IMG/VR virus record: IMGVR_UViG_3300045988_017048
Span: 32,001-96,000 of that record
Strand: one strand, 5' to 3'
Length of the DNA: 64,000 bases
Source: a virus
Each line of letters opens with the position of its first letter. The stretch's first letter is position 1. A program made the position numbers and the translations under genes. Positions 2,772 to 24,439 of the stretch are shown piece after piece. Below the pieces are notes generated by a model. It was not told where the DNA came from and did not search any database. It saw only the letters and a program-made list of their open reading frames with translations.

Positions 2772-3254
2772 TTACTCTCCAAGAGACAGTCTGCTATCAG
2801 CCTCTGCATCATTAAAGGAGTTAGTAGGGTCAAAAGGAGCCTTTTCACCAGCCTTTACTTCTGTCTCAGGTGCCTTCTCAGTGTCATCTACCATCTCAAA
2901 GTCAATATTTTCAACCTCAGGCTCTTCTACATGGATTTCATATACATTAGCCTCCTCATTGAATACTACTGTACCAGCCTTAGGCTCATACTTAGTAACC
3001 TTTACAGGCTTACCATCCTTATCAACCTTACCAGTATCTTCTACCTTCTTGACAACCAAGTCTTCACTTGTGAAGCCACCTGTCAAAGCCTTGACACCCA
3101 TCTCATGTCCCTCAATCTCCTCAGTCAGAGCATTATACTCTGCATTGAGTTCATCAATCTTGGCAGCAATCTTGTTCTTCTTTACTACCAAGGGATTAAC
3201 ATTCTGTGCAATTCTTTTTACACCTGCAAACTGTCTTACTGTTAATGTCTTCAT
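2772..3254 (-). CDS. hypothetical acidic protein
   Basis: 160 aa ORF, same strand, with tight spacing to its neighbours. Confidence 0.6.
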   Translation of the reverse strand: MKTLTVRQFAGVKRIAQNVNPLVVKKNKIAAKIDELNAEYNALTEEIEGHEMGVKALTGGFTSEDLVVKKVEDTGKVDKDGKPVKVTKYEPKAGTVVFNEEANVYEIHVEEPEVENIDFEMVDDTEKAPETEVKAGEKAPFDPTNSFNDAEADSRLSLGE

Positions 3255-11496: not shown

Positions 11497-11565
11497 GTGT
11501 ATCTTAAGACTCGAACCTAACCTCTAACCCAACAGTTAGTGTGCTACCAATTACACCAAGATACA
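11497..11565 (-). tRNA. tRNA-like element with a non-canonical anticodon arm (possible pseudo-tRNA)
   Basis: Minus strand: acceptor TGTATCT/AGATACA, D-arm GTGT-AATTGGTA-GCAC, T-arm (T)TAGG-TTCGAGT-CTTA(A). The anticodon stem CTAAC/GTTAG encloses only 6 nt (TGTTGG). Total length about 69 nt. Confidence 0.45.
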
Positions 11566-12738: not shown

Positions 12739-13134
12739 TTATTCGTGTAAATGTTTTAAGTAATTCTTATCTAAGTCAGGATGTTTGTGTATTAAGAATC
12801 TGCAACTTATACACACTATCAGGTGAGCTACACCTTCTGCTGCTATAATTCCTATTACAATATCCTGCCACTTAGGAAGTGAATCCCAGCTTGTCAAGAA
12901 GAGTACAAGAATGAGCATGGTTATCCAAAAAGTACTGCAATAGATGCAGAATCCCAATGGATATGCTATAAAATGTAAGAACCTATTGCCACTTTTAACC
13001 ATAGGTATAAACACTTTACTGTACAAAGGATAGAATATCATATCCTCAACCTTCAGGCAATTCCTATAGAATATGCCTAATAGTCCACCTATTACTCCCA
13101 ATAGCATGAACTCAAACATTAATACATAAAACAT
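12739..13134 (-). CDS. multi-pass membrane protein
   Basis: 131 aa with about four hydrophobic helices. Confidence 0.55.
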   Translation of the reverse strand: MFYVLMFEFMLLGVIGGLLGIFYRNCLKVEDMIFYPLYSKVFIPMVKSGNRFLHFIAYPLGFCIYCSTFWITMLILVLFLTSWDSLPKWQDIVIGIIAAEGVAHLIVCISCRFLIHKHPDLDKNYLKHLHE

Positions 13135-13167
13135 ACTTTTTTTTTAGTTAATACTAAGATTGTTTTG

Positions 13168-13548
13168 TGGAGCATAGGGGAGTCGAACCCCTGTCTTACC
13201 AATCTTTAATAAAAGAATTACACATGCTTACTACTTTTTAATGTGGTTAGTTACCCACTGGGCTGACTGGATTTACAGCATTTCCACCACCTTATTTTAT
13301 TGTCCATAAACAAGGAAAAAGTTGAGTTACCTTCTGTGAGACCACAGCCTATTAATGCTCTTAAAGTCGGACCCTCAGCCTTAGTCTTCATTCAGGCTTT
13401 GCACCTTTCTGTTTCCAAGTAAGTGCTACTCAGCCTATTTAGGCAGCAACTCTATAAGAAGTATTGCCAGTTATTGTTTTGATGTCTTTCCATCAGTCTT
13501 TGCATGTTCTCTTACCAAATAATTAGCAATCAAAACCAAAAATGCCCC
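13168..13548 (-). ncRNA. ssrA: tmRNA (transfer-messenger RNA, ssrA-like)
   Basis: Minus strand: the 5' GGGGCAT pairs with the 3' ATGCTCC-A, including a G3:U70 pair. T-arm AGGGG-TTCGACT-CCCCT. The 5' proximal GGTTTTGA resembles the tmRNA GGnUUCGAC/GGUUUUGAC element. An internal tag frame GGC AAT ACT TCT TAT AGA GTT GCT GCC TAA (13468..13439) encodes GNTSYRVAA-stop. About 381 nt with no ORF. Confidence 0.8.
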
Positions 13549-13766
13549 TAATAAATGGATTCATTTTCTATTGAAAGAATGTCCTAACAAAGTCAAATAT
13601 TGTTTCTTCTTGAAACATCATTATTAAAGTCACTTAGCTTCCTCTTTATATCCCCACATTGAAGCAGTTGCATTTATTAAGTGGTGATAGCTTACCTATC
13701 AGCATCACATTTTGCTTTTCTTCAGGTTCCATGCTTAGTAGAAATAGTGAGCTAAATCCACCATTG

Positions 13767-13838
13767 TATCTCCACTGAGACTCGAACTCAGATATATAGT
13801 TTAGAAGACTATTGTTCTATCCCTTGAACTATGGAGAC
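13767..13838 (-). tRNA. tRNA-Arg (anticodon UCU)
   Basis: Minus strand cloverleaf: GTCTCCA/TGGAGAT, anticodon arm ATAGT-CTTCTAA-ACTAT, T-arm CTGAG-TTCGAGT-CTCAG. Confidence 0.85.
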
Positions 13839-13956
13839 ATTATAAAAGAAGACCTATATTCACATACCAGCCTCCTGTAGCAATATTACTATTGCCTGAA
13901 CTAAAAATCCTTTGCTTAAAAACAATCAAATTGCCTTATATGAGTAAATACCTTAG

Positions 13957-14030
13957 TACTCCCTATTGGGCTTGAACCAATGACCTATGGTTTAGGAAAC
14001 CATTGCTCTATCCAACTGAGCTAAGGGAGC
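13957..14030 (-). tRNA. tRNA-Arg (anticodon CCU)
   Basis: Minus strand cloverleaf: GCTCCCT/AGGGAGT, D-arm GCTC-AGTTGGATA-GAGC, anticodon arm ATGGT-TTCCTAA-ACCAT, T-arm ATTGG-TTCAAGC-CCAAT. Confidence 0.85.
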
Positions 14031-14082
14031 AAATACTTCCACCATAGACAGTAGAAGTAAACTACACATGCTTATGCCATAA

Positions 14083-14475
14083 CTATTCCTCTACTTTCAT
14101 ACCGAAGGGTGTGCCATCAGTGAAAGTAAATTTTTCAAATACTTGTGCTAACTTCCACCAACTTCCATTGATAGATATTGGAAGGTCGTTGGCATCTTCT
14201 GAACCATCAAATACGTCAATCATTTTTGACCTTTCTGTATTTGTACTAATTATCCATCCGAATGGCTGATGTTTCAGCATCTCTTGCCAGCACTCTTCTG
14301 CATCCTTGAAAGGTCTGTAGGTAGGCTCTGGCTTGATACGAAACTCTTGTGTTCCATCAAAGAATGCTATAGCCTCAGCTGAATACCATCTTCCATTCTC
14401 CTTATATTGTATTTCTTTTCCTTCGCTAAATGCCTTAATAATAGGCAATAGCTTTGCTGCTTCATCTCTTCTCAT
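14083..14475 (-). CDS. hypothetical protein
   Basis: 130 aa ORF on the coding strand. Confidence 0.6.
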   Translation of the reverse strand: MRRDEAAKLLPIIKAFSEGKEIQYKENGRWYSAEAIAFFDGTQEFRIKPEPTYRPFKDAEECWQEMLKHQPFGWIISTNTERSKMIDVFDGSEDANDLPISINGSWWKLAQVFEKFTFTDGTPFGMKVEE

Positions 14476-17977: not shown

Positions 17978-18006
17978 TTGATTGTTTGTTTATGGATTGA
18001 TAAAAG

Positions 18007-18081
18007 GGAGATATGATAGACTCGAACTATCATTATAACTGCAATTATTGAGTTATGTACTAACCATTGTACTAATATCTC
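18007..18081 (-). tRNA. tRNA-like element with an enlarged (10 nt) anticodon loop
   Basis: Minus strand: acceptor GAGATAT/ATATCTC (preceded by G, discriminator C), D-arm GTAC-AATGGTTA-GTAC, T-arm GATAG-TTCGAGT-CTATC. The anticodon stem TAACT/AGTTA encloses CAATAATTGC. Confidence 0.5.
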
Positions 18082-24365: not shown

Positions 24366-24439
24366 GCCTCCTTAGTGTTAATGGTTTAGCAAGCCTGTCT
24401 TGTAAACAGGAAGAGAGGGTTCAAATCCTTCAGGAGGCT
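24366..24439 (+). tRNA. tRNA-Thr (UGU)
   Basis: Acceptor GCCTCCT/AGGAGGC, anticodon arm CCTGT-CTTGTAA-ACAGG, T-arm GAGGG-TTCAAAT-CCTTC. Confidence 0.85.

Follow-up and report, generated by a model that had tools for sequence, protein, structure and literature searches.

The DNA analysed here, a 64 kb stretch from a virus (hereafter the window), carries on its minus strand, at positions 13168-13548, a standard one-piece transfer-messenger RNA (tmRNA) gene with a short tag reading frame of its own (Table 1). An earlier note, made by reading the sequence, had claimed a phage-encoded tmRNA at this place and had proposed that ARAGORN or the Rfam covariance models be run on it; both were run, and both detected a tmRNA. 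ARAGORN called positions 13167-13548 with the tag GNTSYRVAA*, and the match to Rfam RF00023, at 76.1 bits (E = 9e-28), exceeds the gathering score of 47 and spans the full model (model positions 1-374). Because this match is colinear, the gene is not of the permuted, two-piece form (RF04321, RF01849-51), and because its T-loop is intact, it is not of the intron form. The particulars given in the note are also present. The minus strand starts with GGGGCAT and ends with ATGCTCC followed by the discriminator A, which yields the G3:U70 pair; the T-arm AGGGG-TTCGACT-CCCCT is perfect; the tmRNA-like element near the 5' end reads TGGTTTTGAT; the tag frame GGC AAT ACT TCT TAT AGA GTT GCT GCC TAA occupies 13468-13439; and the stretch is free of ORFs (no ORF of at least 50 aa within 13134-14083). 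The minimum-free-energy fold of the RNA is more stable than those of shuffled sequences (z = -2.83), and this unaided fold recovers the acceptor stem, the long P2, the PK1 hairpin, two more hairpins and the T-arm.

Table 1. Features of the tmRNA gene and of the tRNA genes directly upstream of it (tmRNA positions are counted from G1).
Feature	tmRNA positions	Window positions	Strand	Evidence
Whole tmRNA gene, G1 to discriminator A, 381 nt		13168..13548	-	ARAGORN; RF00023, 76.1 bits
Acceptor stem, 5' strand GGGGCAU	1-7	13542..13548	-	pairs with 13169-13175
D-loop-like element UGGUUUUGAU	11-20	13529..13538	-	aligns with Rfam consensus uGGaUUCGAC, high posterior probability
P2 helix, 5' strand	21-47	13502..13528	-	24 pairs, 99.6-100% paired in 41 sequences
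PK1 hairpin UGAUG/CAUCA	54-69	13480..13495	-	A-U to U-A in 5 sequences; in minimum-free-energy fold
Sequence upstream of the resume codon, AACAAUAACU	71-80	13469..13478	-	aligns with Rfam consensus AAAAAAUAAuU
Tag frame GGC AAU ACU UCU UAU AGA GUU GCU GCC UAA (GNTSYRVAA-stop)	81-110	13439..13468	-	ARAGORN
Post-tag hairpin GCACUU...AGGUGC, with inner GAAA-loop stem	123-148	13401..13426	-	G-C to U-A in 6 sequences; 98.4% paired
Variable central region, expected site of PK2 and PK3	149-258	13291..13400	-	length variation between homologues
Last pseudoknot (GGA/UCC and GCUG/CAGC), then hairpin GUGG/CCAC	264-306	13243..13285	-	covariation
P2 helix, 3' strand	322-352	13197..13227	-	partner of 13502-13528
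T-arm AGGGG-UUCGACU-CCCCU	357-373	13176..13192	-	100% paired
Acceptor stem, 3' strand AUGCUCC, and discriminator A		13168..13175	-	sequence; homologue alignment
Two tRNA-Arg genes: TCT (13766-13838) and CCT (13956-14030)		13766..14030	-	directly upstream of the tmRNA; ARAGORN and Rfam

Homologues were collected through pattern scans of IMG/VR, which brought in crAss-type contigs. This gave 44 distinct full-length genes from related phage contigs, together with one deletion derivative. The whole genes measure from 301 to 450 nt, in three classes (about 301-316, 377-393 and 439-450 nt). What distinguishes the classes is the central pseudoknot region alone, with hardly any change in the first 145 or the last 120 nt; the length variation is confined to PK2-PK4, a region that is largely dispensable in E. 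coli tmRNA. The members of the 439-450 nt class (L017, L018, L020-L023, L029, L030, L033 and L034) score 52.7-65.7 bits on Rfam and are missed by ARAGORN. As the same program also misses the intron-containing forms described below, both go unannotated, and pipelines that rely on ARAGORN (e.g. Pharokka) under-annotate such genes.

The earlier note had also proposed a covariation check against crAss-like homologues, and for this a structure was drawn by hand and scored on 41 distinct aligned sequences (alignment A1). Standard pairs occupied 95.6% of the cells, compared with 40-49% when the partners were slid by 1-3 columns. Fifteen pairs were changed on both sides, against 8.2 +/- 1.5 in shuffles, and the covariation score was 0.156, against 0.093; neither value was reached in any of 500 shuffles. 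The compensatory changes are spread over P2, the PK1 hairpin, the post-tag hairpin, the last pseudoknot, the hairpin next to it and the T-stem. Four such pairs lie in P2, where for example a C-G pair at the top becomes U-A and a U.G pair close to the base becomes A-U; three are in stem 2 of the last pseudoknot and three in the hairpin that follows, and inspection by eye of these last two elements revealed variants such as GUUGA/UCAAC, GUCAAC/GUUGAC, GUAG/CUAC and ACAG/CUGU. In the T-arm, fully paired across the alignment, the outer two pairs vary (A-U/G-C/U-A and G-C/A-U/U-A). The G3:U70 pair is invariant (41/41 homologues) and the D-loop-like element is mostly so, and the acceptor stem has a few unpaired cells only because of how gaps were placed in the alignment. 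These comparisons indicate that the gene is kept by selection.

For PK1, drawing a second stem by standard pairing was attempted and none was obtained. The hexamer AAAGAC occurs twice in this area (13484-13501 on the minus strand; A1 columns 50-72), one copy preceding the PK1 hairpin on its 5' side and the other lying in the hairpin loop. Both copies read AGAGAC in the genes of cr106_1 type, a parallel change in copies that are not complementary to each other.

The tag frame has the expected surroundings of a resume site, with AACAAUAACU-GGC...GCU GCC UAA showing an A-rich upstream context that contains UA, no start codon, a non-polar Ala-Ala end and a stop. Across the family it exists in 15 nucleotide variants, all of which (15/15) are open, which answers the question raised in the note as to its conservation in related phages. 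Differences in length always amount to whole codons, and synonymous changes occur. The encoded tags comprise GNTSYRVAA, GNTSYKVAA, DNTSYRVAA, DNTYRVAA, DNTYKVAA, GNTYRAAA, GNSYRVVA and GTSYKMAA, as well as three longer ones, AEVDYTPVRMAA, AEVDETPVRMAA and AKSYRMTPALMAA; all end in Ala-Ala except one, which ends in Val-Ala, and the stop is TAA, or TGA in one case. The open frame, the whole-codon insertions and deletions, the synonymous changes and the conserved ends form the pattern expected of a translated frame. Taken together, the ARAGORN call, the Rfam match, the covariation among 41 homologues and the codon-level constraint on the tag support the identification of a phage-encoded tmRNA with its tag frame.

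Judging from its sequence matches, the window comes from a crAss-like phage (Crassvirales, Steigviridae-like). Parts of it match bajarodcaudo virus 1, IAS virus, several entries named 'uncultured phage cr...', Kehishuvirus and crAss001-type Bacteroides phages. In the phage collection, the tmRNA itself matches three distinct genomes (five records), all of them Steigviridae, namely cr106_1, Kehishuvirus sp. 'tikkala' and cr128_1, so that its spread among crAss-like genomes is patchy. In the relatives, too, there is always a tRNA-Arg gene directly upstream of the tmRNA on the same strand; the order in cr106_1 is tRNA-Arg, tRNA-Ile and tmRNA, separated by 6 and 9 nt. The tmRNA and the two upstream tRNA-Arg genes are probably one tRNA-type transcription unit. 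Alignment of the upstream region was noisy, with only the tRNA-Arg conserved, in addition to a spacer conserved within the 381-nt class. A scan for sigma-70 promoters and terminators around the tmRNA stayed at chance level (6 found, 6.8 expected), also in the stretch that separates it from the tRNA-Arg genes, the promoters of Bacteroides and crAss phages lying outside the scope of this method.

The earlier note had spoken of a set of tRNAs with 20 specificities, and on this point it must be corrected. The tRNAs called by ARAGORN in the window cover 18 amino acids; a tRNA-Thr(TGT) at 24366-24439 (plus strand) was detected only by Rfam and by ARAGORN with relaxed settings; and no tRNA-Ser was found in the window by ARAGORN or Rfam, so that the window tRNAs span 19 amino acids. 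ARAGORN also reported two tRNA-like genes whose anticodon loops are abnormal ('tt' and 'taat'), at 11497-11565 and 18006-18081 (both on the minus strand), and similar genes are present in a related contig (L028).

The closest annotated counterpart is in cr106_1 (Mahstovirus faecalis, Steigviridae; MT774378 / NC_055871), whose GenBank record already includes a feature 'transfer-messenger RNA, SsrA'. This gene belongs to the same family, occupies the same position after tRNA-Arg, is 91% identical to the window gene in the conserved 5' and 3' halves and scores 74.3 bits on Rfam. However, it is 302 nt long rather than 381 nt, with a different and shorter central pseudoknot region, and its related tag, DNTYRVAA, is one codon shorter and begins at the resume codon GAC (Asp) instead of GGC (Gly). 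Phage tmRNAs are well documented: 402 of 18,146 phage genomes (2.3%) were reported to carry one, corresponding to 133 unique genes, of which 53 were two-piece and mostly marine (PMC9004378), and the 2025 tmRNA database lists 79 phage sequences of standard, intron and permuted forms, with a tag-less form in phage DS6A (PMC11915505). Since such genes are documented and the cr106_1 copy is annotated, the type was already known, and the window gene is an ordinary, correctly recognised member of it. Literature searches for the tmRNAs of crAss phages or Crassvirales returned only mentions in methods, and no paper discussing them was found.

Like the window gene, the tmRNAs of mycobacteriophages (including the tag-less one of DS6A) and of marine phages such as Melnitz are ssrA genes without a phage SmpB, often located beside tRNAs, and the role proposed for other phages' tmRNA is to maintain the hijacked translation machinery (PMC9004378, PMC11915505). 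They belong, however, to phages of other host phyla and are unrelated in sequence, and the Melnitz type is two-piece, permuted and linked to a riboswitch, whereas the window gene is standard and lies within a tRNA operon. The huge and Lak megaphages, some of which carry tmRNA and SmpB together, are likewise gut or environmental phages with components of trans-translation, and the hosts of Lak phages are Prevotella, i.e. Bacteroidota (PMC7162821); in contrast to them, the crAss-like genomes of the phage collection do not encode an SmpB of their own.

For comparison with possible hosts, bacterial genomes were scanned with a degenerate tag pattern, which led to Bacteroidota loci. ARAGORN identified 101 tmRNAs in these loci, with the tag GENNYALAA in 89 of them and GETNYALAA in 6, a Bacteroides included. 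The tag GETNYALAA that the note gave for Bacteroides is right for that genus, GENNYALAA being the commonest tag in Bacteroidota. The host genes and the phage gene share the one-piece organization, the G3:U70 pair, the resume codon GGC, the lack of an encoded CCA, a AAUUAACU-like context upstream of the resume codon (the Parabacteroides context, AACAATTAACT-GGC, is near-identical to that of the phage) and a tag of nine residues of the form G-x-(N/T)-x-Y-x-x-A-A. The phage tag has Arg and Val where the host tags have Ala and Leu, and it lacks Glu; unlike the host tag, it is basic (Arg), with Val at -3 and no acidic residue. Over the first 80 and the last 70 nt, phage and host tmRNAs are about 60-68% identical, and the phage gene has a central region of its own, unlike that of the host genes. 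The GC content of the phage tmRNA (39%) is close to that of the window (36%), the mean of the host tmRNAs being 46%. This level of identity, combined with the phage-like GC content, points to a long-standing resident of phage genomes, i.e. a tmRNA that by its sequence is Bacteroidota-like but has long resided in phages.

Several related phages contain unusual versions of the gene. In cr128_1 (L003:4001-5317, MT774392) and in four IMG/VR contigs (L019, L025, L027 and L032), the tmRNA is split in the T-loop (TT|CGA) by a group I intron of 869-871 nt, the junctions being GACGAGGGTT | intron | CGAATCCCTCATGCTCCA. The intron is recognised by Rfam (RF00028, 86 bits) and holds an antisense ORF of 186 aa of the HNH/endonuclease VII type; the split gene is unannotated in GenBank. 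With 1317-1318 nt, genes of this type are longer than the longest one in the 2025 database paper (1152 bp, PMC11915505), and their intron site seems to be the 'position 3' of that paper, there reported only from Bacteroidia. An 871-nt intron that is 74% identical to that of cr128_1 occurs in a second lineage, in a short tmRNA of the DNTYRVAA type (L035:13157-14362), and after splicing in silico this gene is called as a tmRNA by ARAGORN. Its presence there suggests that the intron moves between tmRNA alleles. Complementarity of the T-stem is kept across the introns (GAGGG/CCCTC and, in L035, TTGGG/CCCAA), which implies selection on the spliced product. The phage intron gave no match in the host loci. 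A segment 65% identical to the tmRNA intron (L097:914-1464) lies outside any tmRNA gene in a viral contig of 178 kb.

The only cultured relative, Kehishuvirus 'tikkala' (L002:4002-4314, OQ198717), has an intact tag, DNTYRVAA, and a tmRNA whose 3' end, ...GGGTTCGAGTCCAACCATCCCCA, is unable to form a T-stem or to pair with the 5' GGGGCAT. From its sequence, this end seems to have been exchanged, within the T-loop, for another tRNA-like 3' end; in the database record, two hypothetical CDS are annotated over the region. The deletion derivative (L026:9460-9550, minus strand) is a mini-tmRNA of 91 nt that consists of the tRNA-like domain only, the PK1 region, the tag and the pseudoknots being deleted. 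In this it is reminiscent of the DS6A mycobacteriophage tmRNA, which is likewise tag-less, and its existence shows that the full function is dispensable at least sometimes.

In crAss-like phages of the family Suoliviridae there is a tmRNA of the permuted, two-piece form (L006:2654-3083; 30 other loci, e.g. L007, L011-L016, L054, L057, L062-L064, L081, L099, L121 and L126; also L270:7913-8355, from cr114_1), which three RefSeq records already annotate as tmRNA. Outside these phages, the permuted form is known from Alpha- and Betaproteobacteria and from Cyanobacteria. The score on RF04321 is 42.9 bits, just below the gathering score of 47, and covariation is seen at three positions of the P2 helix that the two pieces build together. 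The tags include GNTSYVTDYTRLVA, GNFYVTDYTRIAA and GKTFVSDYTRLSA, and some members have the 28-nt T-arm/acceptor sequence of the window gene and its GNTSY tag start. As to a possible common origin of the one-piece and permuted crAss tmRNAs, their identity at the tRNA-like ends is 0.73, and that between phage and host is only slightly lower (0.68-0.71).

The earlier note had seen no SmpB-like ORF nearby and had concluded that host SmpB would be required. This is borne out by all the searches: no SmpB was found by Pfam among the ORFs of 1-20.1 kb, with the E. coli protein as query in all frames of the 64 kb window and of the crAss-type loci, or in any crAss-like record of a collection of 50,697 phage genomes, where SmpB occurred only in prophage-edge records, Lak megaphages and phages larger than 600 kb. 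A Bacteroidota SmpB to serve as query was sought in the host loci, where none was found, and E. coli SmpB was used. This query returned 100% matches to E. coli records and detected the SmpB of Lak phages at 1e-21, so that its sensitivity is adequate. The 3' trailer of the tmRNA is CAA, so that CCA is not encoded, as in all of the phage tRNAs and the sampled host tmRNAs. Lacking a phage SmpB and an encoded CCA, the RNA must use the SmpB, AlaRS, EF-Tu and CCA-adding enzyme of the host.

On these grounds, we consider it likely that the tmRNA gene, which is of the standard (one-piece) form and belongs to a crAss-like Bacteroidota phage, is functional. From its features we infer expression, charging, SmpB binding, tagging and a benefit to the phage, as follows. 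The tmRNA would be co-transcribed with the two upstream tRNA-Arg genes and, being tRNA-like, trimmed by RNase P and the enzymes that process tRNA 3' ends; the host CCA-adding enzyme would complete its end, and host AlaRS would charge it with alanine through G3:U70. Host SmpB and EF-Tu would then deliver it to ribosomes stalled on mRNAs that are broken or lack a stop codon, where translation would resume at GGC, append Ala-GNTSYRVAA and terminate at UAA, freeing the ribosome. The C-terminal Ala-Ala of the tag would direct the peptide to host proteases, whose recognition of the phage tag is assumed. The phage would gain additional ribosome rescue under its own control during degradation of host mRNA or translation stress. 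That the tmRNA might keep translation going under nuclease attack, or redirect tagging, as the note had suggested, is plausible.

Other roles must be weighed against this one. The RNA might mainly bind host SmpB, AlaRS or ribosomes, dampening or hijacking host trans-translation, with tagging a secondary matter. With no SmpB from the phage, it must indeed compete with host tmRNA for that of the host; a derivative reduced to the tRNA-like domain exists naturally in contig L026, and the tag-less tmRNA of mycobacteriophage DS6A was reported to inhibit the endogenous tmRNA in E. coli (PMC11915505). A pure decoy, however, would need neither the resume context nor the helices around the tag, which are conserved, and the coding constraint on the tag frame is clear in 44/44 full-length members; we therefore regard such competition as quite unlikely to be the main role. 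The gene could also have been captured from a host and be carried along with the tRNA array without any selected function in the phage, which would suit its patchy distribution among crAss-like phages and the existence of decayed, deleted and intron-invaded copies. Against this stand the compensatory substitutions and the conserved tag frame across many diverged genomes, the T-stem complementarity maintained across introns, and the long persistence implied by the phage-like GC content and by tRNA-like ends that share only 60-68% identity with host genes, which together make a purely passive passenger very unlikely.

Because tmRNA genes are often integration sites and ssrA fragments occur in prophages (PMC11915505, PMC9004378), an attP-like copy of the 3' end of host ssrA, used for site-specific integration, was also considered. 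This explanation is extremely improbable and was rejected: the gene is full length instead of a 3' fragment; over its last 70 nt, identity with the sampled Bacteroidota tmRNAs is only about 60-68%, which leaves no identity block for crossover; the search of the ORFs of 1-20.1 kb yielded no integrase domain; and the covariation runs through the 5' half and the tag.

Beyond the likely presence of a functional tmRNA gene, a broader picture may be sketched, which we offer tentatively and consider unlikely to hold. The phage tmRNA would provide phage-controlled trans-translation, as opposed to spare capacity, and would be expressed from the tRNA operon during infection, keeping ribosomes available when nucleases of the host defence or of the phage cut mRNAs or tRNAs. 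Its tag (Y-R/K-V/A/M-A-A, basic and with no acidic residue) would have drifted from the host degron, and proteins carrying it might meet a different fate from those tagged by the host. Crassvirales would then be a single viral order with standard, intron-split (with an HNH endonuclease, and of a length not reached in the 2025 database), permuted and tag-less forms, and the permuted form might have arisen independently within phages.

The crAss family bears on the question of why phages carry tmRNA. Its natural variants, with intact, tag-lacking, 3'-broken, intron-split and permuted genes, are ready-made experiments. In addition, no other phages of the human gut are as abundant as the crAss-like ones, whose Bacteroides hosts are amenable to culture and genetic manipulation.

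Directly after the coding piece of the permuted tmRNA in L006 (about 3010-3085), inspection by eye revealed a tRNA-like cloverleaf, AGTAAGT ... AGGTG-TTCGAGT-CACCT ACTTACT-A, which is called by neither ARAGORN nor Rfam and which, from its sequence, might act as a signal for processing. In the Suoliviridae-type contigs (L004, L011, L015, L016 and others; e.g. L015:5021-9322), RNAs of the types RAGATH-6, RAGATH-7, RAGATH-7-assoc and RAGATH-9 are densely clustered, together with several hatchet ribozymes, no more than a few kilobases from the tmRNA.
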